A stretch of 64,000 bases of DNA from Macrostomum hystrix (lineage: Eukaryota > Animalia > Platyhelminthes), in the NCBI GenBank assembly GCA_950097015.1, contig CATNEN010000001.1, forward strand, positions 19,902,001 to 19,966,000, written 5' to 3'. Positions 13,381 through 63,499 of this stretch are shown one piece after another. The notes beneath the pieces are model-generated. The model was not told the DNA's origin. It saw nothing but the letters and a program-made list of their open reading frames with translations, and searched no databases. Position 1 is the first letter of the stretch. The number at the start of each line of letters is the position of its first letter. The translations under genes were made by a program, and so were the position numbers.

Positions 13381-13534
13381 AATTTTTCTTCTGTCATTAA
13401 ATTGAATTCTCGACATTTTGAGTTTGTTATCTCATAACGTCATAATGATATATATTAGTATGATAAATATTTTGCATAATATTCATTTAATTTTTGTTCT
13501 TCTCAATTTTCTAAAAAGAAGCTAATATAAAAAT

Positions 13535-21338: not shown

Positions 21339-22517
21339 TGATTATAACATTTGTTGCGAAATTTCTATAAGAAAAAACTGAATATTGTCCCACATGTCAC
21401 CCAATTTTCAACTCCTTCAGTGGGGCTCTGCCGCCTCTGTCTCCGTAGTTGGTTGGCTAAGAAGTTGATGTTAATCGAAGAAGAAATTTGAAATTCCCTC
21501 TGCACAACCTCGAATTATCTTCTGCTTTTTGTCATGCTTGGTCACTGCTGCGTCTGGGCTTGTTGGTGTCAGTTGGTGGTACACATTTAGCTAAAATGGT
21601 GGCGAATGGCGGGGGCAACAAAGGTCCGTAGATCAGATTACATGTAGATCAGATCAGATTAGATTTTGGATCAGATTAGGCACCCTAACCAAAATTACTA
21701 ATTGTGTTACGCTTTTGCTCTTTTCAGTGATTATTTAAAAATGGCCGATGGTAATTGGTTCCTATAATTCGGCTCCTGTCATGCTATATCACGCCGGCTT
21801 ATATTTTCTGGCCTTTTTCAGTGCAGAGTTTTTCAAACTTTTTTCAAAACTTTTTTTATCAATGCGGTCTATTAGTTTTGCTGCTTAGTCCTGTCTGCTT
21901 TGCTTTTTGACACACCTTGTTGTTGTCGTTGCTACGATCTTTCTAAAATGTTGCACCTTTATATTGTTAAAGCCGACTCGCTGAGTTTCGTTGCTAGCTT
22001 TTTTCTATTCTATTCTCTATACTTTATTAAGCATGATTTGTTGCTCGTCCGTTTCATCGTGACACAGTATACTTTAATATTCATATTTTTGGCGCCGATT
22101 TGTTAATAACGTGTGCCGTTCAATGTTGCTAACTAAAATAAGTTATTGATTTTTTACCCTACTACGCAACCTCTAATAATCTGCCGAAGCGTGAGTAGCA
22201 GTGTGAGTTTCCGCACCATATGTTGTTGTCCCAACGTTCGTTCCAAAAAGTTTGAGTCCGTTCTTTAACAATGCAACTGTCCCTTGAATTAATTCTGAGG
22301 TCCCTGTACATTAAAATAAGTTGCAAGTTGCAATAGTAATACAAAATATGCATCGGAAGGAAATGCCTGCAGACCCCAACAGTCGGAAGATTTTGCTCGC
22401 AGACCCCTACCCAATTTTAGGATTTCCGTATGAACAATTGGGAATTCCGCTACTCATGGCCCTCAAGGCCACACTCCAGACCCAACCGTCTATGGCTCTA
22501 GCATATTAACTGCATTG

Positions 22518-22672
22518 GCAAAATCTTCCGGAAGGAATTGCTTCTATGTAAATCAATAGGACGCAAAATCTTCCGGAAGGAATTGCTTCTATGTAAATCA
22601 ATAGGACGCAAAATCTTCCGGAAGGGATTGCCTCAATGTAAATCCATAGGAAGCAACATCTTCCGGAAGGAA
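22518..22672 (+). repeat. Four ~45-bp tandem repeats containing the palindrome CTTCCGGAAG
   Basis: gcaaaatcttccggaaggaattgcttctatgtaaatcaataggac units. Confidence 0.9.
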
Positions 22673-23336
22673 GTGCATGCATACGTATCGCAAAAAGGCT
22701 GAATGACCTTTTTTTTGATCTCCCTAGTGTATTTCTAAAAATAGAACACCGTAGGTGGTCATTTCGCGAAAATACGGACGCATATACCAAATGACCTTTT
22801 TTTGATCTCCGTAGTGTATTTCTATAATTAGAACAGCTAAGCCTATGTCTTTTCGCAATCGAGCACTGCGGAGCATGTAGTCGTGTTTGCGAAAGTGCTA
22901 ATATATATCACTGTGTCCTTCATGCACCATATTTCATTGTACTTTCGCGAAAATACCTTGCCCTGTATTAACATTGCTACTTCACTTTAAGCATTTTGCG
23001 AAAACATCATCTAATGTAACTAAAGTACTTAAAGTGCTTTTGCAAAAAAATACTGTTCTACCTTCGTTTGAATACGTATCCGTATTTCGCGAAAATACAA
23101 ACAATAATAGTAATCAGCAGTACTATCTCTATTCCCTCAATAAATCTTATTGTTCTGTTAGACTGAATTATGAAATTCAGTCTACTACCTACTACCTATT
23201 ACTACCTACTCTACTATGAGTAGACAATATAGCATCGTTGAATATATTATGAGTTCGATATTATGCTATACAGTTTTTTTTTCGCGAAAAGTGACTCATC
23301 AATATAAATAACCAGATAACACACCAATCTTTTGCA

Positions 23337-23419
23337 AGTGATCTGGCATGCAGGTCTAAAGCATTCATTTTTAGTAGCAGTGGCTCGGGTTCGAATCCCA
23401 GTCGGCACTACGCATTTTT
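23337..23419 (+). ncRNA. tRNA-like Pol III cassette, left copy
   Basis: TATAAATA upstream, A-box-like TGGCATGCAGG-TCTAA, B box GGGTTCGAATCCC, T-run. No anticodon stem, and an internal T5 may truncate this copy. Confidence 0.5.
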
Positions 23420-23966
23420 CTCAATTTAAAAAATCTGCTAATAATTTACTACTAATTACTACCAAACTACTTTTTGTGAACCCCCATTAATATTAACGTT
23501 TACGGCATTTACCTTCTTTTGATAATGCCTTTACTTTTATATAGGACACATGTCTTTTCGCGAAAATACCACTAGAAACAGTAATCATATTAACACAAAA
23601 GTATTTTCGCAAAAAGACTGCATCAACCTTTGAGAATATATATGTACTTTCGCGAAAATAACTCTGGAATAATCAACACTTCTTTAAGTGATTTTTCAAC
23701 ATATAGATAGACATTCAGAAATCAAATAATTATTCGTGTTTTTGTTCATTTTCTGTTCGAAACTACCTACTCTACTATGAGTAGACAATATAGTAGCAAC
23801 GTTAAATTTATTTAGCATAATAGGCCCATAGACAAGTGCAAATTTTTAGTTCATGGGACAAACCGTGAGTACAGTCGAAGCGTTATAACAGCGGTAGCCG
23901 AGCGCGCTCGGTAATAAATCGAACAATTTTTTCTGTCTGTCATATAAGCAAATCGAAGCGAACGAA

Positions 23967-26900
23967 ATGGACGACTGCCCTGTCTGCAATGCCGCAGTTG
24001 CGAAGAAGAATATCAGAAGGCACTTTGCTAGACAACATTCTGATTTCATTTCGAGTTTCGACTGGAGCGACATACCTGCAGATATGCGAGCCGCAGCGAA
24101 TGCGTCGGCTGATGCCAAGGCAAATGCTGTATGGAAGGTCCTCATACTCCGTCGGAAGGGAATTGATGTACTATACAAGCATTGTCCATATTGTGGTAAA
24201 TGTGTGCGGCAACTCAGCAAGCATATCGCACGACCTTGTAAAAGTAAACCGGCAATTACAGAGGCAGCAAATGCAACCCTTTCGTCAGGTGAGAGCGACG
24301 ATTCTTCGTCTGATTCGATTGACGCGGGTGCAAAAATTGAGCTGCCTATTGTCGTGTGTGCGTCGTCTGCGGGATCGTCTTCTGCTGGACAGTCCACTGC
24401 TGTACGCATTACCAACAGTGCATCGTCTGTCATACCGTCTACTTTAGTAGCACCGGTGTTGGCTAGTTTCGATCGTGCCGGACCATCTTACACGGCCGAT
24501 ATTGTCAGTCACGACATCGAGCGACTGCAAAACGAAACGAGTACGATGCCAGAATTCAATAATGCCAACGACAATGTGGCAGCGATCAGTAAGTGGTCTA
24601 AAATATTGTTGTACATGCCTTTAAATTTTTAAATTTACACATAAAGACAAAAAATAATCAACAAATATTTATAACTTTCCTGTCAAACAGAATTTATCAA
24701 TGGACTGCGTCTGAATGCGGCCGGCCTCAACGAGATTCTGCAGAAAGCCCACAACGCTGAGCATCCGCGCGTGTGTACTAGCTTGCAGAATCTGGTCAAT
24801 CTGACAGAAGCAATTCTCCAGTATACGTCAGACTATGTTCCGGTCGGAGTCACCAATGCTGTCAGTCATCGACAAGCAGAGACTCAGACCTCTAAATCTG
24901 ACGTGGAAAATACTGATGATTCTGTCAGTGAAGAGGAGCTTGTATTGCAACGGAGGCACAAGACGTCTCGGCTTGTTGTTTTCGACGGCCCAGACTACCA
25001 CGTTGCATCTGAACACATGTACAAGCAACTAGACAATGTCGGCGACATCTGGTTCAAGGGTCATTGCTGTGTAGAAGAGAACGCATCGCATGTTAGCCGT
25101 AGGAAAGCAATCCAGCGGAACTATCATGCTACAACTAGTCGTCTCCTACACGCAATCAATGTCACAGTCGAGATGTGGTTCATCAATCCAGCGCGCATCC
25201 AATTCGATCTGGACGAGATGGTGAAGCGCCATATCTGGAAACCATCGACTGTTGGACAGCGAATGAACGAGCTTCATAACATATTGAGCGGCGCGAAGAA
25301 GTTTCTAGCAGCCAACAACGACTTCGGTGCTCCTAGTGTTATGAACGCGTTCCAATTGACCTCGCCACCAGATGGATTGTTTGCCAACGTGCATGCCGAC
25401 ATTGTCAAGGCCGCGTCAGAATTGCCTGCCTGTCCTGACCCGCGCAAAGATGGTATTCTCTATCATCAGACTGCAGTATCTGGTCTGTTGACTAGCCGCA
25501 TCGAATCAATCATGGTGAGCAGTGTTGTTGTGTCGCATATTGTATACTATGTTAGTTGATATATCACGAACAATTGTAGAAGCTACTGCATGTACTTTCT
25601 CTTTCATAACCCTTTAACATGTACAGGCTTGCATTGGATTGATTCGTCAGCGGCAAGAGAATATCTATCACCTGCGCGATGACGAACGCCAGCTGTCCTA
25701 CACGGATAAGTTCCTGACCGCTGACGAATGGCGCATCATTCACAACCGGCTAGACTGCCTGATTGATATGGTCGCCAAACATTCGTGGTCTCATCTACCC
25801 GTGAAGGGCTACTGGGGTCGCATTGGACAATGTGCACGTCGAATGGCCAACGTCGTCGGCAAATGGAATACATTTATTATGCCGATCACGCGTGAACTGG
25901 CCTTCTTCTGTGCAGCAATTGTCCATGCCAATCGACTACGTCCTTGGGTCGCGATCCGGCGTTGCTATTTGGATGCTGCACTCAATAGCGGCGTATCAAC
26001 GTCCTCCACCATTGTCACAGTCCTGCCGCCTACCGAAGTGGCACACAAAAAGGGCGGTCGTGGTAAAGGTGCAAGCTGGACTGCGCCACGCAAAGTCGGC
26101 GAATGTCTACTGCAATGGATAGACAACTTTCTATTGCCATACTTCGCCGAGTGCAACATCCATGTCAGGCCAGGCAAATGTCTGCTGTTTCCTACGCATC
26201 GTGGCAAGCAGCGTGACTCGACAAGTTTCAGCACGCTTGTCAAGCAGGGCGCCGAGTTGGTCATCGATCGGCCCTATCGCATGGGCGATGGTCGTCGAAA
26301 TGTACTGTCGGCCTATGTGCACGCGCATCCCGACAAGCTAGACCAGCTGGTGCCTCTGTACGACACATCGCGCAACTGTGTCGTGAATGCGTATGGACGC
26401 CTGGCCAAACAGCAGGCCAATCTGATGGTCGCCGACGACGTCAGAGGATGCTTCGAGACATTCTGTCACAATCGGCCACTTGATCGTCGACATCAACGAC
26501 ATCCAACAGCCGAAAACGACACGAAGCGTCGTCGCTCTGCCGCCTGTAGCGTTGATCTGGACGCAACCAATTCATCGGCTGCATCTCCTCTACCTGCTGA
26601 TGACATTGTGATGCCACATAGTCAACGCACACGCAAGCGACGCACTCGACGGTCGTCCATTTGCAAGGCCACTGACAAGAAGCGACCTCGAATGTCGACA
26701 ATGCGACCCGCTACGGTTAGTCCTAGATGTTCAACAACGGACAACACCGAGTCGACAAAGCCGGCCATCGATTCAGCAACACCATCGCCTATTTCGTCTA
26801 CATCGTCTAGACGACGCAGTCTTAGTCAACCGCCGATGTTTGGAGCATCGGCTGGACAAGGCAACGTTCACGACGATATCGACGAAGAAGGTGATGATGG

Positions 26901-27027
26901 TGAACAACAGCACGTCAGCAATGACAATGAGACCAGCTCGGATTCTGAGCTACTCATGGTTCGTCGAACGGAATACAGGACGCGATCTGGGCGCCTGATC
27001 AGTTCGAGAACTAGACTGGACATCTGA
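23967..27027 (+). CDS. Zinc-finger/tyrosine-recombinase-like protein, 948 aa (exons 23967-24588, 24691-25514, 25627-27027)
   Basis: Both GT..AG introns (phase 1 and phase 0) join three ORFs in frame. N-terminal C2H2 and C2HC fingers. YR-like motifs NRLRP, HKK, LLFPT..GK, GDGRR and YDTS...NAY in the expected order and spacing. C-terminal TRSGR. Confidence 0.75.
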
Positions 27028-27429
27028 ATGCTCATATTGTCCCAGTCGTGTCATCTGAATTTATATGTGCTGATTGTCTGATTTGCCAAACTATTATCAA
27101 TTATCAATTGTGTCAATTGTGATACCCCCACTAATACCCGTCCCTTTACAACCGAGAATCTCATATGTTCTGTTTGTTGCTCTCTTATATATTGTTAAGA
27201 TGCTAATGATTGTCAACACTGTGATTATTTCGTTAGTAATTAAATAAATTGACAAATGAAATCATTTGATTATCATCTGATTAAACTGAGATTAAACTAT
27301 TCTCGTTTTCTTAAAAGCCGAAGATACACGAAAAAATCATTCGTGATTATTGACAATTAGCAGAGAAATATACTAAATTTGTCGATGGTAAAAAAGTACA
27401 AGTCACTTTGTCTGAGAATACGTATCTAC

Positions 27430-28040
27430 ATTCGCGAAAATACCATAATATGTAGCCATGCACACTACTTTAAGAACTTTTGCAAAAATACCGCCAACTA
27501 CCTGCGTTTAATAGCATAACAGTATTTTCGCGAAAATACCTTAAGATGTAGCCATGCACACTACTTTAATAACTTTTGCAAAAATACCGCAAACTACCTT
27601 TACTACCTGCGTTTAATAGGATAGCAGTATTTTCGCGAAAATACCATAATATGTAGCCATGCACACTACTTTAAGAACTTTTGCAAAAATACCGCCAACT
27701 ACCTTTGTTTAATAGCATAGCAGTATTTTCGCGAAAATACCTTAAGATATAGCCACGCATATAACCTACTTAATTAATAACTTTTGCAAAAATACCGCCA
27801 ACTACCTGTGTTTAATAGCATAACAGTATTTTCGCGAAAATACCTTAAGATGTAGCCATGCACACTACTTTAATAACTTTTGCAAAAATACCGCAAACTA
27901 CCTTTACTACCTGCGTTTAATAGGATAGCAGTATTTTCGCGAAAATACCATAATATGTAGCCATGCACACTACTTTAAGAACTTTTGCAAAAATACCGCC
28001 AACTACCTTTGTTTAATAGCATAGCAGTATTTTCGCAAAA
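27430..28040. repeat. ~100-bp tandem array with TTTTCGCGAAAA and TTTTGCAAAA palindromes (array 1)
   Basis: About six units of cagtattttcgcgaaaatacc...aacttttgcaaaaataccgc. Confidence 0.93.
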
Positions 28041-28368
28041 ACAGACACTATTTTTCATTTACAAGTATTCAATATAGTACATATTGTCTTTTCGCGAAAA
28101 AACTCATTCGTGAGTTTTGGCAATTTACAGAAATACACTAAATTTGTCTATGGTAAAAAGTCACTTTGTCTGAGAATACGTATCTGCATTTGCGAAAATA
28201 CCATAAGATGTAGTCACGCTACTTTTGCAAAAATACTGCCCTTACCTTCGCGAAAATACTGTATTTACTTTCCATTTAGAACTCTGCTTCCTATTCTAAT
28301 TCTACTTCTGCTAGTGTTAGACGCGCTGCTGTTGCACTCACGACATTGTTGGTTGTGTAGAACTCACG

Positions 28369-28788
28369 ATGAATACGCATCCTGTGGCGCTGTTCGGCTC
28401 GCCGGCCACCGTGGCACTCCTGGCCAGATGCGACATCGCCTGTCTGGCCCCGTTCCTGACTTACCGAGGACGATTGGAGCAGCTAACCTGCCTGCAGCGC
28501 CACTGCCCGACTGCTGAGCTGAACGTCACCCAGCTGCACACCCTGATGAAGAGCCTCCTGGACTGGCTGCTACAACACAAGACAGCTGCGGGCTACGAGA
28601 CCATCCTGGAGGTGACCTGCCTAACAGAGAACGAGGCCTTCGACTTGGCCGAGCTGCTAGGCCTGCTGGAGGACACATGTTTGGAGCTGCAGCACATTCT
28701 ACACGGCCTGGACTACTGGCGCGGCGTACAGCAAAGGGCTAGACTGCGAGAGTTGCTCCGGAGCCGCCGATATCGAATTGAGCAGTAA
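28369..28788 (+). CDS. 139-aa helical protein of unknown function (paralog A1)
   Basis: ATG-initiated, GC3-rich codons, alignable along its length to 33565-33945. Confidence 0.8.
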   Translation: MNTHPVALFGSPATVALLARCDIACLAPFLTYRGRLEQLTCLQRHCPTAELNVTQLHTLMKSLLDWLLQHKTAAGYETILEVTCLTENEAFDLAELLGLLEDTCLELQHILHGLDYWRGVQQRARLRELLRSRRYRIEQ

Positions 28789-29099
28789 CAGCAGCAGCAG
28801 CAGCAGCAGTAGCAGCACTAGTTTTAGGTAGACTTAATACAGCTAATTGTAGTTTCCTGTTCGCCGTTTAATTTATGCCAGCTATTTATTTAACCCAATT
28901 AATTCGCTCAAGCAAAAATACATGAGTGAACCTGTTGCAAGTTGTATTCGCGGCATGAATAATAATAAAATATAATGAAGTCAAGTCATATTTGGTTATT
29001 GATTACCATTAGATATAGTCATCATGAATACTTAAAGTACTTTCGCAAAAATATTGTCTTCTTATTGTCTTCAACCGCCGCATTATCGCCGCATGTCTG

Positions 29100-29402
29100 C
29101 ATTCGCGATAATACCATAAGATGTAGCCATGCACACTACATTAAGAATTTTCGCAAAAATACCGTCAACTACCTTTGTTTAATAGCATAGCAGTATTTTC
29201 GCGAAAATACCAAAGATGTAATCATGCACACTACTTTAAGAACTTTTGCAAAAATACCGCCAACTACCTTTGTTTAATAGCATAGCAGTATTTTCGCGAA
29301 AATACCATAAGATGTAGCCATGCACACTACTTCAAGAACTTTTGCAAAAATACTGCCCTTACCTTTGTTTATAGAGCATATCAGTATTTTCGCGAAAATA
29401 CT
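29100..29402. repeat. ~100-bp palindrome array 2
   Basis: About three units of the same repeat. Confidence 0.9.
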
Positions 29403-29601
29403 ATATATGGAAATAGCTTAGACCCAGTTGACGATGCCTGTCTATGTCTATGTGTCTGACTGCTGCTCTGTACAGGATATGAGCAGTGCTAGGTAAATAT
29501 ATGCGCGCGCGCACGCAAATCGATAATTAAAATTCAGCCACAACGAACACTCTGTCGATTATTCAGCAGGCTAGCCAGCGAACGACTATATTTAAGCTGC
29601 A

Positions 29602-31095
29602 ATGGAAGACAACAACGGACTCCGCTTCTGCCATTTCTGCGGCCAGCAAATCCGCGCCAATATGATGCGAAGACATTTTATAGAGGCGCATAAAGCTGTC
29701 CATGCCGAATTTGACTGGACAGTCCTACCTGTTGGTCAAAGGCCATCGCTATTCGCGTCGGTTAAGGAGCGTGGAAGTGCCGTCTGGAAGATGCTGCAAC
29801 TACAGCGGGCTGGTGTGGATGTCGCTGCCGGTGGACGTGTGCTAGCGTGTCCGCATTGCAACAAAATAACGTCCAACATGTTGCATCATCTATATAGATG
29901 TAAGCGGAATCCGCAGCGTCGCGTCGGTGGCCAACCAGCTCAGCCAGTGGCAGTGGCGGGAGCAGCGGCAATGGGCGAAGTGGTCCAGCTTGAACAACTG
30001 GATCCACTACCAGCTGTGGTCGGCGAGATTGTCGACTATATGCACGAGCGCTACATTGCCCGTCGACTGCCAGCAGCAGAGCAGCCAGCAGCAGAGCAGC
30101 CAGTAGCAGAGCAGCAAGTAGCAGAGCAGCCAGCAGCAGAGCAGCCATCAGCAGAGCAGTCAGCAGCAGAGCAGTCAGCAGCAGAGCAGCCAGCAGAAAC
30201 TATCATCATAGAAGATAGCGCAGCTGAATCAGGCATCATCTATGCAACAAGTACTGACGAGCCTGCTGAACATGTGAGCCAAGCGGACAGCGTGTCAATT
30301 GGATCAGTACGGCATCCAATTTGTACATCTACTCCGCTTAATCACAATGCGATTGAAGCAGCAGCAGAAACAATCCAATCGGATCACTCGCCAGTACCAT
30401 CGCCATCAATGCCAATGTTGCAAATTGAGCCAATCGGATCACCAGCGATGCCTATGTTGCCGATTCCAACTGTCGAGGTGCCGTATTTCGTTCCGGTGCC
30501 GCTACCTGTTTTTATTCCTGTCTGTGCGCCAAGAGTAACAACAGCGACAGTTGGTGTCAGTGCACAAAACGGTGTGACCGATGTTTCAATCGAAGCCAAT
30601 GTCAGCACGCAGTCAGTGTGTATTGGTACATCATCCGGTCACGGTGATGACATTGAAATGGCGCAGATTCTGCTCGACTTGATGCAACCTGCCGCTATGC
30701 AATTTCTGTCTACCAATACGGATTGTGTTGCTGCTGCTGCTGGATCGGATTTCGCTGCCCATTCCGAAGCAAGTCACATCGATGACATGTTTGATGTCGC
30801 AATGGAGATCATCATTGCTGATGTCAACAACGATTCGGATGAACAGTTATCTGATGTGACAGTGCCGCAAGGAGATGCCGATGCCGCAGCAGAATTGGTT
30901 CTGACCGCCGACCTTGACGACGATGTCGCAATGTCAATAAGTGATGTGCAGTCATCGCAATCGACTATACCTGCGACTGATGCTTTGCATGCATCTAGAC
31001 GCTCGTATTGTATATGCACACACAATATATTGACTACGACAGTGTCAAGACACGGCCGATTGATCAAGACGCGACAATGTCTGTGCGGCAATTGA
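29602..31095 (+). CDS. 497-aa double zinc-finger protein with acidic low-complexity body; recombinase-less paralog of 23967-27027
   Basis: CHFC..RRHFIEAH..FDW..AVWK..GVDV..CPHC..HLYRC aligns with the N-terminus of the YR-like protein. AAEQP repeats. C-terminal SRHGRLI parallels TRSGRLI. Confidence 0.82.
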   Translation: MEDNNGLRFCHFCGQQIRANMMRRHFIEAHKAVHAEFDWTVLPVGQRPSLFASVKERGSAVWKMLQLQRAGVDVAAGGRVLACPHCNKITSNMLHHLYRCKRNPQRRVGGQPAQPVAVAGAAAMGEVVQLEQLDPLPAVVGEIVDYMHERYIARRLPAAEQPAAEQPVAEQQVAEQPAAEQPSAEQSAAEQSAAEQPAETIIIEDSAAESGIIYATSTDEPAEHVSQADSVSIGSVRHPICTSTPLNHNAIEAAAETIQSDHSPVPSPSMPMLQIEPIGSPAMPMLPIPTVEVPYFVPVPLPVFIPVCAPRVTTATVGVSAQNGVTDVSIEANVSTQSVCIGTSSGHGDDIEMAQILLDLMQPAAMQFLSTNTDCVAAAAGSDFAAHSEASHIDDMFDVAMEIIIADVNNDSDEQLSDVTVPQGDADAAAELVLTADLDDDVAMSISDVQSSQSTIPATDALHASRRSYCICTHNILTTTVSRHGRLIKTRQCLCGN

Positions 31096-31393
31096 TTTCA
31101 TTCAATTCAATTGGCTCTGCGTGCAACTCGGATTGGGCATCTTTGACCGTCTACTGGCTGATTGGCTGGCTGGCTGGCTTGCTGAATAATCGACTGACTC
31201 ACTTATAATAAATTCAGACTGAACTTGATTTAATCGATTGATTTAATATACGTTGATATAAGAATAAACTAAAAAATATATACTTTTATGCGATTTGATT
31301 CCACTACTGTCTATTTTTATTACATAAATTTTAGTTTTAAGTCTACTTCATTATTCTCAGGTTTTGCGCAATATAAATACAAACATAATATCT

Positions 31394-32680
31394 CAGACTG
31401 ATCGATTACGATTACGTCGGTCTTGTAATAAGTCTCAACGCCAATGTCCATGACATAACCACCAGTCAGTTCATATTATTTTAAATGATAAAATAAATAA
31501 CCAAGATAAGAAGGCGTGTACTATTACCGATTAAACAAATAACAAACACTAAATTATTAAAATATTTATATTTTAAAGCGAATGACCGGGTGCAGAGCAT
31601 GCTGACTGCTCACATTGCCATTAGGCCGCACGTTAGCCATCTGAAAGCATTCAGAAAAAAGCTGAAATCTGACTAACTTGCGGCCAAGTGGCAATGTGTG
31701 AGCAATAGCCAGCTGATATCTTAGCAGCTTCAGTTGAAGGACGCGAAAATACATTATACTGTTCAACCAGTATGTGACATGTCGCAGTATGTGAACCACT
31801 GAACCGTCACACCGAATCACTATACACTACAATACCATAGCAGTCCTGTGTATTTATATTTTGAAACACGGGGATGTCCGGGTGCAGAGCAGGGCTGACT
31901 AATGCTCACATTATCATCGGGCCGTACGTTAGCCAGATGAAAGCTTTCAGAAAAAAACTGAAATCTGGCTAACGTACGGCCTGATGGTAACGATGGCTAA
32001 CGATACTGTCTTCCACAAAAGCCTTCTTACCTTTTTACCACTGGCACAATATGCACAGATCTCAAGTAGTCAACGATCATAGTCGTTTTGACTTAAGAAT
32101 ACGTATGTACTTTCGCGAAAAAAAAGTTGGCAGTGCGCAAAGACTAATTATAGATGAAATCTCTGGCTATATTCGCGAAAATACCATAGATATAGCCGCG
32201 CTACTTAAAAAACTTTTGCAAAAATACTGCATACAATATGAATTATATGCAGCCGTTTTTTTGTCTATGGCCAAAAACGTCTGACTGTATTTTCGAAAGA
32301 AAAAATGTGGATACGAAGAAAAAAAATCGCGAAAAAATCGAGCTGTACCAAGCAGATATGTCTTTGGTAAAATACGCACAATTTAATGCACTACATACCT
32401 ATAGTCTGCACGTTTTAATAGTGCATCTTGGCATATCTAGCAAGACGTAAGCGTATAATAATTTATTCGTTGTTTGTACTTTACTTTTTTAAACGAATCC
32501 GTTTTTATTAATATTTTCTTACATGAGAAACTTGTATAAACTTTACTTGAAATTATATACCAGACTGATCGATTACGATTACGTCGTTATTGTAGTAAGT
32601 CTCATCGCCAATGTACACCACATAACCAACAATCAGTTCATATTATTTTAATGATAAAATAAATAACCAAGATAAGAAGT
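31394..32680 (+). repeat. ~125-bp direct repeats (31394-31515 and 32561-32680) enclosing two hairpin-forming ~100-bp repeats
   Basis: cagactgatcgattacgattacgtcg...aataaccaagataagaag occurs twice. ccgggtgcagagca...ggcc occurs at ~31586 and ~31878. Confidence 0.85.
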
Positions 32681-32767
32681 TATGTATTTTGAGAACTATG
32701 AAACTATTTTAATAACAATTTTAAGCTTATTTTATTTACAAACAATAACAGAATTAATGCAAGATTG

Positions 32768-32908
32768 TCAGGGACTGATTGGGCAGATAGTCAGGGACTG
32801 ATTGGGCAGATAGTCAGCGGCTGATTGGGCAGATAGTCAGCGGCTGATTGGGCAGATAGTCGGACTGATTATAGCACACCAGATAGTCGGACTGATTATA
32901 GCACACCC
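32768..32908 (+). repeat. 23-bp tandem repeat (cagggactgattgggcagatagt) x4 plus a related duplication
   Basis: Direct repeats visible. Confidence 0.9.
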
Positions 32909-32979
32909 GGCTGCGGGATGAAAGATGGGTTTTAGGTTTCATTTAGTTTGTTAGCTCAGATGTTACCATGCATATGTGT

Positions 32980-33276
32980 TCATAAATATTCAAATGAAAG
33001 GAATCGAAATCTACTACTCACATAAGGATCCAGCCCTGCCGCTATGCGGCGGGCCCGGGCCATGCGGACCATGGCCGCCCGGACCCGCCGCATAGCGGCA
33101 GCCATCTCGGCCTCCTTCCCGCGACGTCCCGGCGTCCAGGCCTCCGCTGCCGCCACTGCTGTCGCTGCATCCATCGCTGCTCGCAATGCGCTTTCCAATT
33201 CGGCCGCAGCGGAGGCCAGTACGTGTTCCCGGAACGCCGCGGTGAAGGAGGGAAATTTGTTGCTATTGTTGCTCAT
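32980..33276 (-). CDS. Small Ala/Arg-rich helical protein, probably spliced after codon DPY
   Basis: ATG-initiated GC-rich ORF in an AT-rich context, with a GTGAGT donor at 33021. Downstream exon not identified. Confidence 0.55.
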   Translation of the reverse strand: MSNNSNKFPSFTAAFREHVLASAAAELESALRAAMDAATAVAAAEAWTPGRRGKEAEMAAAMRRVRAAMVRMARARRIAAGLDPYVSSRFRFLSFEYL

Positions 33277-33564
33277 GTCCGTGCTGTGTCGCTCGCTATC
33301 CTGTAGCTTCTGTCCGTATGGCGTTGGTTGTGGGCTGATTTCTTGGCCGAGAAAGATTTCTTGTTCTTAATACCCAGACTGGCCTGTATTCATTTGATTT
33401 GTCTGTGGACTGACTCACCTGTGTTCGATAAAATATACTCTATGGGGGCTTCTTATCGCATTAATATTAATATTAATATATCGCTTCTTATTAAACGATT
33501 AAAGTTTAGAATTTTTTTTAACAAAACTATTTTTTGCTTTACTTGATTTACTAACTGACTGAAC

Positions 33565-33945
33565 ATGTCGTTCATTGCCCATCAGATGCAGTTAGTACAA
33601 ATGTATCTTCAGCCGCGCGTATTTCAACTCTTTCTCAGCTGTCGCATAGATTGCATTGGCCGGTTCATAGCGCATCGAGGGTGCTTCGAGCAGCTACCTA
33701 GTTTGCAACGCGGTGTTCCAAATGCAGAGTACAACGCTAATGAGCTATGTTTATTATTACGGCGCACTCAACAATGGCTGCAAAAGCACCGGTCAGCAGA
33801 AGACTATCAGGCTGTCTTGTCCGTGACTGGTGTAAGAGACGATGAAGCACAAGACATCATCGAAGTGCTAGAGCTTTTAGAGGAAGCCCAAGCTGAACTT
33901 CAGCTCATCATACATGGAGTTCGCTATTGGTACATCGAACAATGA
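33565..33945 (+). CDS. 126-aa helical protein of unknown function (paralog A2)
   Basis: Shares C.I.C...F...RG..EQL..LQR..P.AE.N, WL..H..A..Y...L.VT.....EA.D..E.L.LLE....ELQ.I.HG..YW and terminal IEQ with A1. Confidence 0.8.
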   Translation: MSFIAHQMQLVQMYLQPRVFQLFLSCRIDCIGRFIAHRGCFEQLPSLQRGVPNAEYNANELCLLLRRTQQWLQKHRSAEDYQAVLSVTGVRDDEAQDIIEVLELLEEAQAELQLIIHGVRYWYIEQ

Positions 33946-34458
33946 ATGCTGTAAAATACAGAATTTATATGCAGAATTTTATGTATTATAGTTTACACGT
34001 TTATTTTTGCTCTCGCGACTTTGCAAATCAGACTAATTGTAGAATGGCACGATTATTTGTTCAACCAATGAAATTCTATATATATTTATACTCTATATGT
34101 ATTGGTGAAATTTAATAAAAACCGTATTAATAATTACCGGTTGACTACCTGCACACATCTGTGTTCGCGTATTAATATTTTATTACTGACTGATCTCATC
34201 AGTCGTCTGATTATGATTAATGGTAAACGCGACAATATATTGTCAATAGTGACGGCAAACTCTTATGCTTTGAATATACCACGTGAAGGTGAACGAGAGC
34301 TAGTGTATATAAAAGTACTTTAAAACATTTGCAGGCATCATGAACTGTCGATTTTAAATACTCTGATGTATGAATCAAATACATGAAACTTCTAATTATA
34401 TTAATCAGTTAATTAATTTCATTATAAGCAATGGCAACAGTGCTTAACAAAACAATTG

Positions 34459-34917
34459 CTACATGTCATTCAAATCTGGGTTATTTGCAGCACGATTGGC
34501 ATCGCCGCGCTCTCTTTCAGTGCCAGTGCCGCCATTGTTACTGTTGCTGCTGCTGCTGCTTATAATTGGTGACTGTATATCGGTCACTTGCGCATGCTGC
34601 GGCAGTTGCAATTGGCCGGCTAAATCACGTGTCGGATTGGCGTTCACAATTCCAAATCTCTGATTGTAAATGCGCACGACACCTGGACGATGCAATACGT
34701 ACTGAACACGTTGACGTGAAGGCAGAATAGCAAAATCCGAGTCTGAACTACTATCCGAGCTGTGCCTTCGTCGACGTCGCTCAGTGCCAATCACGACATC
34801 TGTGCTGCTACTGACGGTAGGGCACGAGATCGGTTTGTCGTTGCCAGAGTTGTGATCCTCTCTGTCGATATCTCGATCTCGATCTCCGCCATTGTGCCGC
34901 CCACCCAGTGATGACAT
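34459..34917 (-). CDS. 152-aa mostly disordered protein with basic cluster (RRRRRH) and Ser/Asp tract
   Basis: ATG-initiated GC-richer ORF bounded by AT-rich flanks. No recognisable domain. Confidence 0.55.
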   Translation of the reverse strand: MSSLGGRHNGGDRDRDIDREDHNSGNDKPISCPTVSSSTDVVIGTERRRRRHSSDSSSDSDFAILPSRQRVQYVLHRPGVVRIYNQRFGIVNANPTRDLAGQLQLPQHAQVTDIQSPIISSSSSNSNNGGTGTERERGDANRAANNPDLNDM

Positions 34918-35152
34918 GTTGTAGTTTTTTTTATTTGAAACAATAATTAAGAATCTAAAATGTGTAAATAAGTTACGCCACTTACCTTAGTAAAGTAACC
35001 AACTAAAAACCCTATTGCTAGTCTATGGTAACAAGCTTGCTGATAATCTTATGTGATTGGGAATATGTAATCAATGCAGTTGAAACTTTGGACAATTAAT
35101 GAAGTAAATAAAACAAGTTCAACATTTTAAATACTGCCCCCATTGTCTCGCC

Positions 35153-35833
35153 ATGCCTACATCAACATCATCATCAGGGCCAACTCTAAACGATGCGGAA
35201 AAATCCAACTGTCACGACGATGACGTTGAGCTGAATGAAGAGCCAGGCTATGATGACTACGGGTATGATGAAACATACAATTCAACATACAGTTTTGTAT
35301 TCGGCCTGGCAGACGACCATTTGTTATACGCCGTAGCCGAAGAGGTCGAAGCGGCGATGGCAACCAATTGCTTTGACCCAGCTGATGACGAGCTTTAGTA
35401 TGCAGCAGCTGAAGAGGCGGAGGCGTCAGCAGCAGCGGCAGCGATGGCAGCCAGTAGCTGCTTATTTGACCCAGCTGACGACTGCCTATTGTATGCCGCA
35501 GCTGAAGAGGCAGAGGCGTCAGCAGCAGCGGCAGCGATGGCAGCCAGTAGCTGCTTATTTGACCCAGCTGACGACTGCCTATTGTATGCCGCGGCTGAAG
35601 AGGCAGAGGCGTCAGCAGCAGCGGCAGCGATGGCAGCCAGTAGCTGTTTATTTGATCCAGCTGACGACTGCCTATTGTATGCCGCAGCTGAAGAGGCAGA
35701 GGCGTCAGCAGCAGCGATGACAGCCAGTAGCTGTACATTTGACCCAGCTGACGACTGCCTATTGTATGCCGCAGCTGAAGAGGCGGAAGCGTCAGCAGCA
35801 GTAGCGATTGCAATTGAGGAGGCACAAGTTTGA
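35153..35833 (+). pseudogene. 226-codon acidic tandem-repeat protein (six DDxLLYAxAEExE motifs) with one in-frame TAG at 35396-35398
   Basis: ORFs 35153-35398 and 35444-35833 are in frame. The TAG sits where sister repeats have TTG (Leu). ~93-bp units. Confidence 0.75.
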
Positions 35834-36279
35834 AATGATATTATAAAAAATACATTCACTATGATTAATTACAGTGATATTATAAAGCTTCTGATTATCA
35901 ATACTATTTGATATCTACATATGTGTTGTGTTGTAAATGATTGAAAATACACTAATCTTTTCGCGAAAATACCATCACCAACAATCATCAGCACTATGTT
36001 AAGCATTATTGTTTGTATGTTAGTACTCAAAGCAATTTCGCAGTTTGTATTTGTTTTAGAACATGTTCTTTCGCAAAAATATGTTCATCATCGTATCGTT
36101 AGTATTTTTGCAAAAAAACTGTCATTATTTTTCATTCACAGGTATTCAATACAATATATAGATAATATATAGTCTTTTCGCGAAAAAAATGCACTCATGA
36201 CTCTTGGCAATTTGCAGAAATACTAAATATGTCTATGGTTAAAAAAGTACAATATACTTAGTCTAATAATATGCATGTA

Positions 36280-37262
36280 TTTTCGCGAAAATACCTTAAG
36301 ATATAGCCACGCACACAACTTCAAGAACTTTTGCAAAAATACCGCCAACTACCTTTGTTTAATAGCATAGCAGTATTTTCGCGAAAATACCATAAGATAT
36401 AGCCACGCATATAACCTACATTAATAACTTTTGCAAAAATACCGCCAACTACCTTTGTTTAATAGCATAGCAGTCTTTTCGCGAAAATACCTTAAGATAT
36501 AGCCACGCATATAACCTAATTTAATAACTTATGCAAAAATACCGCCAACTACCTTTGTTTAATAGCATAGCAGTATTTTCGCGAAAATACCTTAAGATAT
36601 AGCCACGCATATAACCTAATTTAATAACTTATGCAAAAATACCGCCAACTACCTTTGTTTAATAGCATAGCAGTATTTTCGCGAAAATACCTTAAGATGT
36701 AGCCATGCACACTACTTTAATAACTTTTGCAAAAATACCGCAAACTACCTTTACTACCTGCGTTTAATAGCATAGCAGTCTTTTCGCGAAAATACCATAA
36801 GATATAGCCACGCATATAACCTACATTAATAACTTTTGCAAAAATACCGCCAACTACCTTTGTTTAATAGCATAGCAGTATTTACATGAAAATACCTTAA
36901 GATATAACCACGCATATAACCTAATTTAATAACTTATGCAAAAATACCGCAAACTACCTTTACTACCTGCGTTTAATAGCATAGCAGTATTTTCGCGAAA
37001 ATACCTTAACATATAGCCACGCATATAACCTACTTTAATAACTTTTGCAAAAATACCGCCAACTACCTTTGTTTAATAGCATAGCAGTCTTTTCGCGAAA
37101 ATACCTTAAGATGTAGCCATGCACACTACTTTAATAACTTTTCCAGGTCACAGCCGCAAACTACCTTTACTACCTGCGTTTAATAGGATAGCAGTCTTTT
37201 CGCGAAAATACCTTAAGATGTAGCCATTCACACGACTTTAATAACTTTTGCAAAAATACCGC
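36280..37262. repeat. ~100-bp palindrome array 3 (about ten units)
   Basis: TTTTCGCGAAAA near 36280, 36376, 36476, 36576, 36676, 36781, 36990, 37090 and 37197. Confidence 0.95.
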
Positions 37263-37645
37263 TATTTACTTTCGGATAAAAGTCGTTATTTTATTTTCGC
37301 GATAACACCTGTAAATGAATTTTATTAATTAATACTTTGACACTTTGCATATACCTTCGTTTGAATGCGTAATACTATATATAGTAATAAGAAATATGAT
37401 TTTTTTGCAACAGAAGTAGCAATTACCTACTTCACAACAATAAAAGCTCAAAACTGAGCATATAAATTGATTTTATTTGTATGACTAATTATAAAATTGC
37501 ATACAAAAACAGTATGAAACAGTAAAAAATATAAAAAAAACAGCTGAAAGACTGACTGAAGGACCGAGTAAAAATATAGTCGATAAAATAGCAGCATGCA
37601 GGCAGTTTGGTGTAAAAAAACCTGCTAACAGCACCGTCTTGTCGC

Positions 37646-40361
37646 TCATACTCGCCGGTCCGGGTGATCGCCAAACACATTGCGTATTGGGTGGCATTGT
37701 CCATCGCATTGGTAGTCGGCACTGAGGGAATGACCAATGAAGATGGCAACTACCGGACGCTTGTGCCCATCAGGTGTCGGTTCTAATCGGCGCTGAAAGT
37801 CCATCGAATACGCACTGACCGGAGCATGCCCAGCAAGCACTAACAGTCGATTGAGCCAAGAGACGTGTCGAATAGCCTTGTATTTAGCATTGACTTCAAA
37901 AGTGTCTCCATTGACCAAACGAAGTAGTGTGCACATGACTTCAGATGTGTCATCAAACAGTTGCGGGCGTAGCTCGTCAATAAACATGGCAGTGTGTATA
38001 GTCTCGCAGAGCTTGTCAAACATAAACGTGTTAGACCGCTTCTGCACCTGGATATTCAGCACTTTCGTAGAACCGAGATGGCTTTGCACAGAGTGGGTCT
38101 TCCCAACGCCAGACGGGCCGTATAGATAGACGACACCAGTTGGCAATTGCAACGCGCTGCACACAGCCTTTACAGTTGGGCACACGTTGGTGGCGGCGGC
38201 GATCAACCGGGGAACATGAGCGACGGCGGCATCAAATACTTGAACAGCAGTAGCAGCGGAAGCAGCAACATCAGCAGCAGCAGCAGAGACCTGTTGTGTT
38301 GTTAGGTAGGTTCGCATACAATTAATTAATTAATTGTCCAAAAGTAATAATTATTTGAATTAAAACAACAGCAAAAATTCAATGATCAATACTCGTACGT
38401 GTGCTAAAAAATGTCATGTATTATAATATTTTGCATACCTCCAGCTGAGTAGGCAAGGTCGTCCTCGCATAGTCGGCTGTTGCAGCATCATCAGCAGCGG
38501 CGGCGGCGGCAGCGGCAGTAGGGCGACAGTTTTGGCAACCAGCTAGCACCTCTGTTGCTATTACGCGTTTCATCTGAGTCACCTTAAAGTAATCGCTGAG
38601 CTCTTGTCTGACACGAAAGTGTTCGAACATGAAGCCACTATCTAGCAAAGGCTCAGTAGATGACGTCTCATGAGCAGCAACCCAGCAAAAGGCCTTGGTC
38701 AGCAAGCTGCACTCTTGAGTAGAAACGCGGAAAAGAGCTGGAAACTCGTCCGTACTGGTAACTAGCTTAATTGCACTTGACGCACTGCGTACACCAGACA
38801 CTGTCATTCTACACATTGTAGGATGCAGGTAGGCCGAAGCTTCCGCAGATTCCATCAAAAGGGCATGCAGTCCGCAGTAAACAGTGTAACCATCTTCTGG
38901 TTGGCGCAGGTTCAGGAACATCAGCAAACCATTGGGATGATTCGGAGCTCCTAAACATTCACGGATTGACATGTTGTATTTCTGCTGACGACGCGCTCGG
39001 ATTTCTTCGCTGGTCAGCATGTCAACCTGAATACATGATGTTGCGCCGATGGCAAACTGTGCACATGGAGCTACCAATTCATCTTCTAGAAACGCCTTGA
39101 ATTTTTCCACATCGCTCGAGATGAATGCAATCTCTATAAGATGTAGCGTCCTTCTAGTCATAAGAACCGACCTGCCCTCTGCTGTTAAAGAGGCGTAGTC
39201 GGTAATTGGAGCTCGAGGACATAGCCGTAGAAGTGGTGATGTCGAACGACACAACGCATATTCATCGGCTATCGGAGCAAATGCCACGCCACCAACTTCT
39301 TGCTGCTGCCGTTCACGCCGTTGTATCTGCTGCCGCAGCGGCTGCCGCCACTGCTGCTGCTGCGGCTGTTGCTGCGGTTGTTGCTCTCGCTGTTGATGCT
39401 GCTGCTGCTGCTGCGATTGCTGCAGTCGTCCCGACTGTTGCGCTTTTGGTTGAGAAGCGTCGACATACGCTGGAGAGAATACAGCGCGAACTGGTTCATC
39501 AGCATCGGATGTTGTCCCATTCTCGATGACAGACATTGCCGGTGTAGAGCGAGGCGCATAATCTGGCGAAGTCGGACAGGCACCAAGTGCGGCACTATTT
39601 TTAGGAATAGTCGACTCGCCATTAACGCGCAATAATTCTGCCACCTCTGTTTTGTACTTATCATCGACTAGCTGCGATGACAAGGCTGAACTATTAGAGG
39701 CCGTCAAAACAGGGGCAGTATTAGACTCTACATTGTCTGTATTGTTCGTCCACTCGTCCACAATCTCCAGCTGTACGTCGTCTGCTAGCAAGTCGTCCGC
39801 TGAGTCATCTTCAGATGATAGCACTTTAGGCGTGGACTCTATGCGATCAGCATGGTCGCCGGCGCCACAAATTGGTTGGGCAACAATAACCAGAGGCTGT
39901 CGCATGGCTACTAGAGATCCAACGCCAGTGTCTTCAGCATCAGACGACGATGAATTGCTAGACGAAGCATCCAAATCGACAACTGTACGCGTCCGCTTGC
40001 GTAGAGTCGATCGGGCATATCGACGCTTCCGAATTGCACTCGATGGGACAGTCTGCTTCGGCTGCTGCTGCTTCGGCTGCTGCTGCTGCTGCTGCTGTTT
40101 CGACTGCTGCTGCTGCTGTATTACTGCAAGGCGGGGAACAGTGAAGGCAGCCGATGCCCGACCAGCCGTTCCTGCCATTGCTGTAAATGATGCCGATGAT
40201 GCTTGCACACTCGGTCTAGATGCTGCGCCAGTAGGACGATCGGTTGACTGCTGAGATCTAAAGTAATCCACGATCATAGTCTGGCGTAGACCATTAGCAT
40301 CCGGTGTAGCAATGCTGGCATCCACACGAGCCTTCTTTCCACGGCCACGAAATGCTGACAT
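37646..40361 (-). CDS. Rep-like protein, ~855 aa: PIP box, disordered N-terminus, degenerate HUH-like domain, SF3 helicase (exons 40361-38439 and 38290-37646)
   Basis: Phase-0 intron 38438-38291 (GTATGC...CTAAC...CAG) joins two ORFs in frame. Walker A YLYGPSGVGKT, Walker B MFIDEL, B' EVNAKYK, atypical motif C LVLAGH, Arg-finger-like FQRRL. Confidence 0.8.
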
Positions 40362-40830
40362 TTCAAAATTCAAGTCGAGGCGTAGGAATTAACTCGTAAT
40401 TACTCGGTCGGTCAGTCAGTCGGTCACAAAGTAGATGTTAAGCGCGCTCAGTCTTACATAGGTCACTTTTGCGACTGTACTCAACTGTAGTTCTAGGTTT
40501 GACTACAGACAAAACTTTTTTTTCGCGAAAATTCACTCGTGTGTATTGCAATCCCCAATTCGCAAATACTAATAGATAAAATTTCTATGGCTATTTCGCG
40601 AAAAAACCATTACAAGTATATAGACTAGCCATGTTAATTCAATTACTTTCGCAGTATACTTTACTACTTCAGGTGCAATCGGCCCTACTATAAGTAATAT
40701 TGCAGTAGTAAGTAAACATTAATAATAATGGGGATCCACACAAAAAGTGTGGATTCCAATATAAAAAAACAGATTCCTAGTAAAAATATTTTTTCATTTC
40801 TAGTATAATGTTGCCCATTTTTTTTTAAAT

Positions 40831-40913
40831 AAAAAAATGCGTTGGGTGAATGGGATTCGAACCCGAGCCACTTGTACTAGCGACAATGCATTAGACCTGC
40901 ATGCCAGTTCACT
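40831..40913 (-). ncRNA. tRNA-like Pol III cassette, right copy 1
   Basis: Minus strand reads tataaata...gtgaac-TGGCATGCAGGTCTAATGC...GGGTTCGAATCCC-attcac...T7. Confidence 0.55.
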
Positions 40914-41099
40914 AACAATTAAAGTGTGTGTTGTCTGGCTATTTATATTGCTTTTCTTTTCTTAACTGGCGTATTCGAGCAAAAGTACGTTAATAATAAT
41001 GGGGATCCACAAATAGTGGGGATTCGAATATAAAAAAATAGATTTCTAGTAAAGATTTATTTTCATTGATAGTAAAATGTTAGCTGTTTTTTTAATAAC

Positions 41100-41182
41100 A
41101 AAAAAGCGTAAGGCTGACCGGGATTCGAACCCGAGCCACTGGTATTAGAGAGAAATGCCTTAGACCTGCACGCCAGATCACT
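41100..41182 (-). ncRNA. tRNA-like Pol III cassette, right copy 2 (tandem duplicate, ~270-bp unit)
   Basis: Minus strand reads tataaata...gtgatc-TGGCGTGCAGGTCTAAGGC...GGGTTCGAATCCC-ggtca...T-run. Confidence 0.55.
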
Positions 41183-41649
41183 AACAATCAAATAGTGTGT
41201 TATCTGGCTATTTATATTTATTTTCTTTCGCATGTTCGAGTTTTAATGACGTTTGTCTGCAAATGGTGAAATCTTGACCACTAATACAATTTTTTTTCTA
41301 ACAGACTGATAATTTTTATTCAGCGAATATAGAGAGTAGTTCAGGAACGTTTTGCAAAAATACTACCCTTACCTTTGTTTTGGAAACATATCAGTATTTT
41401 TGATTATATAAATAAACTTTTCGCGAAAATACCAGCATTTGAGTCTATTCACAGCCAAGTCAGTTTTCGAATCGACATCCATCACATATATGTACGGATA
41501 TGTGATTCAGGCAGCCGATGCTGCTTGCCCACTCGGTCTATACGTATAAACTAGAGTTTACGGACTTAGAGAATTTTATCATGTCAGTGATAAAATTTTC
41601 GACCGTCCCCAGAGCTTAGTTGGTGTGGCTGGTGGAGTAAATGCAGGTA

Positions 41650-42045
41650 TTATATATATACTCTAAAGAAAGGTGCGCGAGCTGTTTTTTCGCAACTTGA
41701 CTTCGTCGTCGTCGTCGGCATATGGGGGCTAGTATATAGCCGGGCTGGCTAAACCCCGGGCGATTCGATTCTATTTTTAGCCTACGGCGCACCTTTCTTA
41801 AGAGTATATATATACAAGCTGACTCGTGTGTATTTAAATGGCAGCCTATTGAAGTCTATGGGGCACGCAAGCCAGTATATACTCTTAAGAAAGGTGCGCC
41901 TTAGGCTAAAAATAGAAACACCATGCATTTTCGGTCATCTATTATAGTAACTAGTCGTCATCAAGCCCGATCTAGATATAATCTCCGTCATATTGCCTCC
42001 AGCGAAAATATACAGCGCGCACCTTTCTTTAGAGTATATACTAAC
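41650..42045. repeat. Nested imperfect palindrome with four alternating copies of TATATACTCTWAAGAAAGGTGCGC
   Basis: Forward ~41655, reverse ~41788, forward ~41876, reverse ~42017. The inner ~43-bp arms (41769-41811 and 41875-41917) are near-perfect inverted repeats. Confidence 0.9.
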
Positions 42046-42089
42046 TGGCTCCCTCTATCCCGCCCCAATCTCACCACACTATTTAAGCC

Positions 42090-42225
42090 TTCGAATCCCA
42101 TTCACCCAACGCATTTTTTTATTTAAAAAAAATGGGCAACATTATACTAGAAATGAAAAAATATTTTTACTAGGAATCTGTTTTTTTATATTGGAATCCA
42201 CACTTTTTGTGTGGATCCCCATTAT
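42090..42225 (+). repeat. Near-identical inverted copy of ~40725-40861 (3' part of the tRNA-like cassette and its flank)
   Basis: ttcgaatcccattcacccaacgc...gtggatccccattat is the reverse complement of the 40.7-40.86 kb segment. Confidence 0.9.
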
Positions 42226-45548: not shown

Positions 45549-45564
45549 TGAGAGCAGGTCAGCG

Positions 45565-56612: not shown

Positions 56613-56677
56613 GTAGCTGTAAAAAAGCTGAAAATTATACAGCTGCTAAAAAGCATTTACTGGACAAGAATTAAAAA

Positions 56678-63480: not shown

Positions 63481-63499
63481 GGTCGATTTCGAAATTTCG

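Follow-up and report, generated by a model that had tools for sequence, protein, structure and literature searches.

A transcribed, apparently undescribed ~20-kb DNA element with a predicted tyrosine recombinase and a likely SF3-type ATPase in the flatworm Macrostomum hystrix

The stretch considered here (the window) comprises 64,000 nucleotides of Macrostomum hystrix contig CATNEN010000001.1 (assembly GCA_950097015.1, positions 19,902,001 to 19,966,000 of the forward strand) and contains a block of about 20 kb that is one repeated, real unit: an apparently multicopy animal DNA element that is transcribed. An ORF (open reading frame) listing of the window places eight ORFs between 23967 and 40361, and the observed/expected ratio of CpG is 1.11 inside the element versus 0.58-0.83 outside. 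An earlier note, made from the letters alone, had described a ~20-kb block of about eight genes; the unit and the eight ORFs have been confirmed, but one ORF (35153-35833) contains an in-frame stop. The two core genes, of 948 and 855 amino acids (aa), are the following.

23967..27027, plus strand: left gene, 948 aa, three exons (23967-24588, 24691-25514 and 25627-27027) without internal stop; splice joints and a 5' loose end at 23939
37646..40361, minus strand: right gene, 855 aa, exons 40361-38439 and 38290-37646; intron joint in run X2; relatives in Macrostomum lignano at 45-48% identity

The left-gene protein is laid out as a zinc finger, a putative core-binding region, a tyrosine-recombinase catalytic domain and a disordered tail that ends in a TRSGR motif. 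A structure model of the recombinase exon was useless when built from the single sequence (predicted local distance difference test, pLDDT, 34) and reached a pLDDT of 68 when built from an alignment of 8 rows. The Foldseek check that had been proposed for the spliced protein has been made with this model against the PDB, and tyrosine recombinases fill all of the top 10 rows (best E 2.4e-3). A structure search independent of Foldseek, over 48,161 PDB chains, ranks XerH first (Z 9.4, root-mean-square deviation 4.9, 184 residues aligned), with XerA at Z 8.9; 20 chains reach Z>=5, every one of them a recombinase, a recombinase-like repressor or topoisomerase IB, and the Crypton-derived Ndc10 (Z 4.9) and a QRICH1 complex (Z 4.3) lie well below. 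Atlas features give 0.93 to integrase clusters, under the Atlas recognition mark, and the BFVD matches include nudivirus and filamentous-virus integrases among phage integrases of similar score. The left gene is thus predicted from the model to encode a tyrosine-recombinase fold in its catalytic domain, and the recombinase-like character that the earlier note had given to the zinc-finger gene at the left end is supported by both structure searches. The canonical tyrosine-recombinase set is R-K-HxxR-H/W-Y. Candidate catalytic residues in exon 3 are R106, K144, D224-x-x-R227, D249 and Y259; the R, K, xxR and Y candidates are kept in the M. lignano protein P0011, and the K, DxxR and Y candidates in the distant relative P0007, a conservation that suggests function.

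The right-gene protein has a disordered N-terminus, a ~260-aa domain of no recognised fold and a C-terminal P-loop ATPase. The ATPase carries Walker A (38119), Walker B (37987), a B'-like Lys and an Arg-finger-like FQRR (37798). RNA_helicase and DUF5906, which we take to be families of the superfamily 3 (SF3) type, are among the Pfam matches that reach furthest past Walker A, and Parvo_NS1 and PPV_E1_C gave no match to the ATPase in the same scan. Judged by its motifs and by these sub-threshold Pfam matches, the ATPase is likely of the SF3 type. The label "Rep", which the gene had also been given, is not supported: HxH and the catalytic YxxK are absent from the 646-aa first exon, in which FLN and GLHAL are the only candidate motifs, just one of them with a His, and no family, structure or Atlas match to a Rep/HUH domain was obtained for the protein, though it may contain a degenerate HUH domain. 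For the N-terminal domain of the ATPase protein, DUF3626 clusters appear at 0.88 in the Atlas, at low recognition, and PDB matches only at E>0.4; readings of this domain as HUH, primase or ADP-ribosyltransferase-like are leads without support.

Relatives of both genes, whose co-occurrence in related genomes the earlier note had proposed to check, are found in a second animal (at least seven recombinase models and 2 ATPases in M. lignano). In a HMMER search with the recombinase over 1.84 billion representatives, the threshold of E<=0.001 is passed by 4 proteins, of which M. lignano contributes two, Logan one and JGI/IMG one, the last named "hypothetical". A cluster of 6 M. lignano proteins contains P0011 (1084 aa), to which the three exons align in their proper order at 28, 35 and 44% identity; the M. 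lignano recombinase models are 93-100% identical to each other. Two distant relatives of the recombinase, P0006 and P0007, are seen on short contigs (1.8 and 2.4 kb), and by sequence comparison they extend the recombinase family beyond the two close species. For the ATPase, the M. lignano protein P0001 is 45% identical (1 of 247 candidates) and also matches the end of the first exon. P0002, a chimeric M. lignano model, is 46-48% identical and is one of 2 matches among 7993 scored; the other, P0003 from Willaertia (E 0.12), is an AAA protein that was set aside as a generic ATPase. Walker A is intact in the M. lignano relatives. By sequence similarity, both core genes have their only named relatives in M. 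lignano, each gene matched separately. A word-based search of longer proteins with the recombinase exon gave 0 of 789 candidates, a weak negative given that the protein clusters do contain the 1084-aa homologue. Scans of 2.9 million viral contigs gave no true relative (four loci in which little beyond Walker A matched were dropped), and there was none among 378 and 78 pattern matches in metagenome contigs, and none in plasmids; the M. lignano gene id does not appear in the supplement files of PMC5816591 (1 file) or PMC12801592 (5 files).

All three introns of the core genes are skipped, with GT..AG ends, in contigs of run X2, and run X5, from a second study, skips the two left-gene introns; the expression by RNA polymerase II that the earlier note had read from the introns agrees with these joints. 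(X2 and X5 are public runs labelled "DNA?" and "?", and were taken as RNA from the splice joints and from the loose end at 23939, which resembles a template-switch primer.) At least half of the recombinase-region words are found in 8 of 10 run rows, all from organism A and from two studies, the best-matching run perhaps deriving from the very source of the window; the small shares in runs X9 (organism B) and X10 were not used as evidence of range. The contig comparison took in both ends and the core genes, on either side of the middle part 27381-37269. In run X1 (DNA), the recombinase stands at a depth of 815.7 and the ATPase at 843.9, against 87.3 for a flank contig of unique depth (21310-22547) that is identical to the window; the ratios are 9.3 and 9.7, one recombinase contig reaches 13.6, and the depth at 41290-41490 is 996. 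The ATPase core is covered by a single 1546-bp contig with 1 difference, and at 40129-40334 two alleles or subfamilies split the depth (ratios 5.3 and 4.3). Because the depths of both genes agree, these data suggest that they belong to a single unit, present in roughly ten near-identical copies that may be chromosomal or episomal, although contig depth is no copy number and the ploidy of the flank is not established, which weighs against the multicopy interpretation.

At 9.3-9.7 times the flank depth, single-copy host genes, the refutation foreseen earlier, look unlikely. A different host-gene explanation is a cluster of domesticated genes that became amplified through segmental duplication, through polyploidy or on a B chromosome. 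It would account for spliced genes expressed in 2 studies with named relatives from one genus only, and both whole-genome duplication and repeat-rich chromosome regions have been reported for Macrostomum. However, the flank directly to the left shows no amplification (87 versus 816-844). The block itself lies amid transposon fragments and satellites and carries a motif and a CpG signature of its own, and internally deleted derivatives of it exist; this explanation is regarded as highly improbable. The deleted forms affect both genes, with joints 24322>27136 (X1) and 24532>26998 (X2 and X9) in the recombinase and 37885>40320 and 38181>40254 (X2) in the ATPase, and are typical of non-autonomous derivatives.

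The block is very probably a selfish mobile or episomal element of some kind, and it likely represents a form of jumping DNA or nuclear plasmid that has not been described before. Several further points weigh against the mechanism proposed for it below and the assignments on which that mechanism draws. No Pfam, PHROG or NCBIfam recombinase profile matched the left-gene protein, none of the Foldseek rows for its model reaches E<=0.001, both canonical histidine positions appear as Asp (DGRR, YDT; mapped by motif position, not by residue-level superposition), and catalysis is unproven. Motif C of the ATPase is without the usual Asn, the Pfam matches to RNA_helicase (E 0.005, 17.8 bits versus a cut-off of 21.5) and DUF5906 (E 0.02, 16 versus 27.6) are both sub-threshold, and the PDB sequence matches are generic AAA+ proteins; the "SF3 helicase" of the earlier note keeps its Walker A, Walker B, B'-like Lys and FQRR, but lacks the motif C Asn and a Pfam match above cut-off. 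M. lignano is a neopolyploid, which can inflate the counts of its gene models. In addition, neither termini nor an empty site nor a circle junction was found in the window and the run contigs, which were compared with each end separately, and the window sequence has no clear target duplication at the ends of the block, where short direct-repeat candidates are within chance.

Outside its coding regions the element contains arrays, cassettes and palindromes, which are positioned as follows.

22346..22700: uncertain left boundary zone, in which a 45-bp unit with a palindromic core is repeated in tandem (22518-22676, 3.5 copies)
23298..23513, plus strand: left cassette of RNA polymerase III (Pol III) type, with TATA at 23303, A box at 23344, B box at 23388 and T run at 23415; inverted relative to the right pair
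27380..28290: array 1, ~100-bp units with the TTTTCGCGAAAA palindrome (repeat analysis)
28980..29420: array 2, 95-bp units, 3.2 copies (repeat analysis)
35940..37300: array 3, 100-bp units, 9.7 copies (repeat analysis)
40700..41228, minus strand: two tandem Pol III-type cassettes, 269-bp unit, each with TATA, A box, B box and T run
41596..42091: nested palindrome, a 24-nt motif four times in + - + - order (41655, 41787, 41876 and 42017)
42090..42225, plus strand: fold-back closing the window copy, a 99%-identical inverted copy of 40725-40861 that abuts host repeat

The arrays are specific to the element, as had been proposed: TTTTCGCGAAAA occurs 24 times inside it and 0 times in the other 44 kb of the window. 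The 8-nt core TTCGCGAA occurs 33 times inside, none of them in coding sequence, whereas 30 shuffles give a mean of 0.17 and a maximum of 2; judged by the E2F consensus, this core holds E2F-like sites on both strands. The three cassettes had been called tRNA-like, and their inverted arrangement is confirmed (23298-23451 is 81% identical to 41221-41070 and 80% to 40950-40821), as are the TATA, A box, B box and T run, labels assigned by consensus. Because ARAGORN (default settings) finds no tRNA in the cassettes and Rfam no tRNA match, they are Pol III-type units but not tRNA genes; they fold no better than shuffles (z -0.3 to -1.2). The nested palindrome, previously taken as terminal, has the four motifs and is followed in the window copy by the fold-back; it may be an origin or a region of recombination. 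Inverted arms of 11 bp, near-perfect and separated by spacers of 5-8 bp, are also observed, at 40731-40757, 42193-42219, 41570-41599 and 23158-23185. This geometry, which is that of recombinase core sites, is met 6 times in the element (two of them T/A runs) versus once in the other 44 kb.

The ends that had been given for the block, 22500 and 42225, are not confirmed. On the right, the window copy closes with the fold-back of 40725-40861, but in 2 contigs of run X1 the palindrome carries on past 42091 instead, as a mirror of 41596-41609 with 1 mismatch in 14; in 2 other X1 contigs the right cassette is joined at 40963 to 23514-23537 in reverse complement, all 24 positions of which match. On the left, the end can be placed only between about 22346 and 22518. 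Neither of the direct-repeat candidates, of 4 bp (22503/42224) and 7 bp (22346/42224), is significant or fixes the ends, and no long ORF is restored when the flanks are joined at the 4-bp candidate. Two layouts agree with the loose ends in X1, and the data do not separate them: subterminal inverted repeats that lie closer together, or a circle or tandem whose two core genes point away from the palindrome. (A joint at 41400>37290, considered as a circle junction, was rejected as an allele of an array end.) An X1 contig of depth 43 has sequence like 22420-22462 joined to the recombinase gene (26460) on the opposite strand, which hints at another rearranged copy and at a left end further out. At 22730-22962 the depth in X1 is ~5400, the segment is covered in X2 too, and several contigs diverge at 22841; this part of the left end is thus shared with a repeat of far higher copy number, which could be a short derivative of non-autonomous kind. 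The element is also flanked by two copies of a 2.2-kb repeat family, 18124-20350 and 43279-45507 (84% identical), which as a terminal repeat were dropped, being too far out and too diverged.

These joints bear on whether the element is chiefly a plasmid. The yeast 2-micron plasmid, which is episomal, has a tyrosine recombinase, inverted repeats, tandem cis arrays and a few small accessory genes, and is not known to encode a capsid, polymerase or helicase. The element shares with it the recombinase, the inverted repeats, the arrays, the small accessory genes and the lack of a recognised capsid or polymerase, but differs in its likely helicase and its chromosomal copy. On this model, the element would be a mainly extrachromosomal nuclear plasmid of 2-micron style whose recombinase flips the inverted cassettes around a palindromic origin and so amplifies the copies, the chromosomal copy being an accidental, rearranged insertion. 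The loose ends fit core genes that diverge from one palindromic control region, the copies are near-identical over the ATPase core, and the window copy ends in a fold-back. Nevertheless, linear copies with ordinary subterminal inverted repeats would also give such loose ends, the depth at 41290-41490 (996) is not doubled, the depth overall is only about 10-fold, and no circle junction was seen, the two ends having been compared separately; we consider a mainly extrachromosomal life rather improbable.

Between the core genes lie the remaining ORFs and a pair of hairpins.

28369..28788, plus strand: A1, 139 aa, paralogue of A2 (40% identity, E 8e-30), no known family
29602..31095, plus strand: 497-aa ORF, paralogue of the zinc-finger region of the left gene (34%, E 1e-18), without recombinase domain
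31563..31990: pair of paralogous hairpins (81% alike; 31620-31690 and 31911-31990), like microRNA precursors, folding z -4.3 and -11.8
32980..33276, minus strand: 98-aa ORF overlapping a 66-nt GC-rich hairpin (33036-33101, z -8.3); may not be a gene
33565..33945, plus strand: A2, 126 aa, paralogue of A1
34459..34917, minus strand: 152-aa low-complexity ORF with an Arg/Ser patch, no family match
35153..35833, plus strand: acidic ORF with 31-aa repeats; in-frame stop at 35396-35398

The 497-aa ORF ends in a basic C-terminal motif similar to that of the left gene and, from its sequence, looks like an older zinc-finger-only derivative. A1 and A2 have no match in family, profile or viral-contig searches. 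Around the hairpin pair, a non-coding 129-bp segment is duplicated at 90% (31385-31513 and 32552-32679). In profile scans, the small ORFs being without structure models, none of the eight ORFs matched a capsid, packaging ATPase or polymerase; there is likewise no match to pPolB or an RVE integrase, and no remaining ordered ORF is long enough for either.

A viral origin is a further alternative. The element would then be a DNA virus that has integrated, or a satellite dependent on a helper, and its capsid would be encoded by a remaining ORF or provided by the helper, with the arrays as hr-like origins and the Pol III RNAs as VA-like. Small-RNA units and palindromic arrays resemble viral features. 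The BFVD matches of the recombinase include nudivirus and filamentous-virus integrases, with phage integrases scoring alike, and Polinton-like viruses are known to combine a tyrosine recombinase and an SF3 helicase (PMC12721341). As described there, Polinton-like viruses resemble the element in size range, in having a tyrosine recombinase together with an SF3 helicase (a likely one in the element) fused to another domain, and in endogenous copies; in contrast, these viruses are defined by a double jelly-roll capsid and an A32 ATPase, neither of which is recognised here, and have mainly protist hosts, whereas the core genes of the element are spliced and expressed. Moreover, the spare ORFs are short or low-complexity and match no capsid, packaging ATPase or polymerase family, the 2.9 million viral contigs hold no true relative, and spliceosomal introns are present in both core genes. 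A viral origin is accordingly judged unlikely.

To our knowledge, most animal DNA elements with a tyrosine recombinase are either Cryptons with a single gene or components of viruses that encode a capsid. In Starships, the recombinase gene sits at one end. The element resembles these as a large, low-copy, cargo-carrying eukaryotic element with a recombinase gene, but Starships, as described in part of PMC10175614, are fungal, have a DUF3435 recombinase, measure 27-393 kb and carry adaptive cargo, whereas here DUF3435 is unmatched and a conserved ATPase lies at the other end. With Cryptons, it shares a tyrosine recombinase in a eukaryotic DNA element, ends that are hard to define and a proposed circular intermediate (passages of PMC3212892). 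Those passages describe Cryptons that encode a recombinase, some with GCR1_C or a C48 peptidase, and the word helicase is absent from the paper. The element differs in its size of ~20 kb, its arrays and Pol III units, the DxxR in place of HxxR, and an ATPase at equal depth; its recombinase is far from being essentially the only gene, there being eight ORFs that include the conserved ATPase. A Crypton- or Starship-like transposon, in which the ATPase and other ORFs are passengers and there is no self-replication, would agree with the ill-defined ends, 4-6-bp direct repeats and proposed circular intermediate that the same part of PMC3212892 reports for Cryptons, and candidate 4-bp or 7-bp repeats are present here. 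However, the ATPase is conserved in M. lignano (45-48%) with an intact Walker A and stands at the depth of the recombinase, Ndc10 and QRICH1 rank well below XerH and XerA, and Pfam scans of the left-gene protein gave no DUF3504, GCR1_C or DUF3435 match, so that this explanation appears quite improbable.

The planarian virus-like elements PEVE and PIVE, as given in part of PMC3198968, likewise have flatworm hosts; they have Rep-like ORFs and occur in extrachromosomal (PEVE) and integrated (PIVE) forms, and a figure legend there lists parvovirus NS1 and papillomavirus E1 helicase domains for the planarian Rep-like ORFs. That part does not mention a recombinase, and the element is without a Parvo_NS1 or PPV_E1_C match, the comparison being one of descriptions only. 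Cryptons, Polinton-like viruses, Starships and PEVE/PIVE each share one or two features with the element and none fits as a whole; the earlier note had likewise seen no fit among Cryptons, Helitrons, Polintons and CRESS viruses. No paper describing such an element was found in the full-text literature (Repbase, subscription journals and bioRxiv supplements lie outside that coverage, and an entry there would lower the novelty), and the passages and 5 supplement files of PMC12801592 mention neither tyrosine recombinase nor Crypton; the element is apparently undescribed.

The rest of the window is rich in repeats. Helitron-like remains at 45546-47578 include a Pif1 2B domain (E 2.8e-19) and an STPR-repeat ORF (E 4e-11), and satellite arrays of 23-bp, 18-bp and 20-bp units lie at 4317-14668, 48098-49096, 50296-51047 and 56165-56614, the 23-bp and 18-bp units recurring at several places. 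A HES-like basic helix-loop-helix exon (63473-63868) ends in WRPW, a combination that we take to be a metazoan Hairy/E(spl) feature, and a 132-aa ORF without family match (1995-2393, minus strand) possibly derives from another mobile element.

A mechanism can be proposed by analogy with known families. The predicted tyrosine recombinase would excise the element and reintegrate it through a circular intermediate; the likely SF3-type helicase would load at the right-end palindrome, and host polymerases would copy the element. The TTTCGCGAAA arrays may act as E2F-type S-phase enhancers or as binding arrays for the zinc-finger proteins of the element, the TRSGR tail, an RSGR-type motif that presumably resembles nucleosome-binding motifs, may tether it to chromatin, and the Pol III RNAs and hairpins could serve as decoys for RNA silencing. 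For this mechanism as a whole, in which the recombinase drives excision and integration while host polymerases copy the element with the aid of its helicase, we see roughly even chances. A more specific version, speculative and on balance doubtful, is an animal nuclear plasmid-like replicon: a capsidless circle with a single palindromic origin between inverted Pol III cassettes, from which the genes for the recombinase and the helicase point away on either side. It would be amplified through its E2F-type arrays in dividing stem cells, its recombinase would flip or resolve it and now and then integrate it, and tethering to chromatin would secure its inheritance. Such a replicon would be to animals what the 2-micron plasmid is to yeast, but would bring a helicase of its own.

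If the reading of the block as a mobile or episomal element with these two core activities is right, a multi-gene, intron-bearing and capsidless element that combines a recombinase with a viral-type helicase would fill a gap between transposon, plasmid and virus. The element is expressed and seems recently amplified, and its relatives occur in M. lignano, a stem-cell model with transgenesis, so that excision, circles and S-phase control would be directly testable. In addition, a eukaryote-adapted recombinase with an unusual DxxR active site could serve as a new integration tool.

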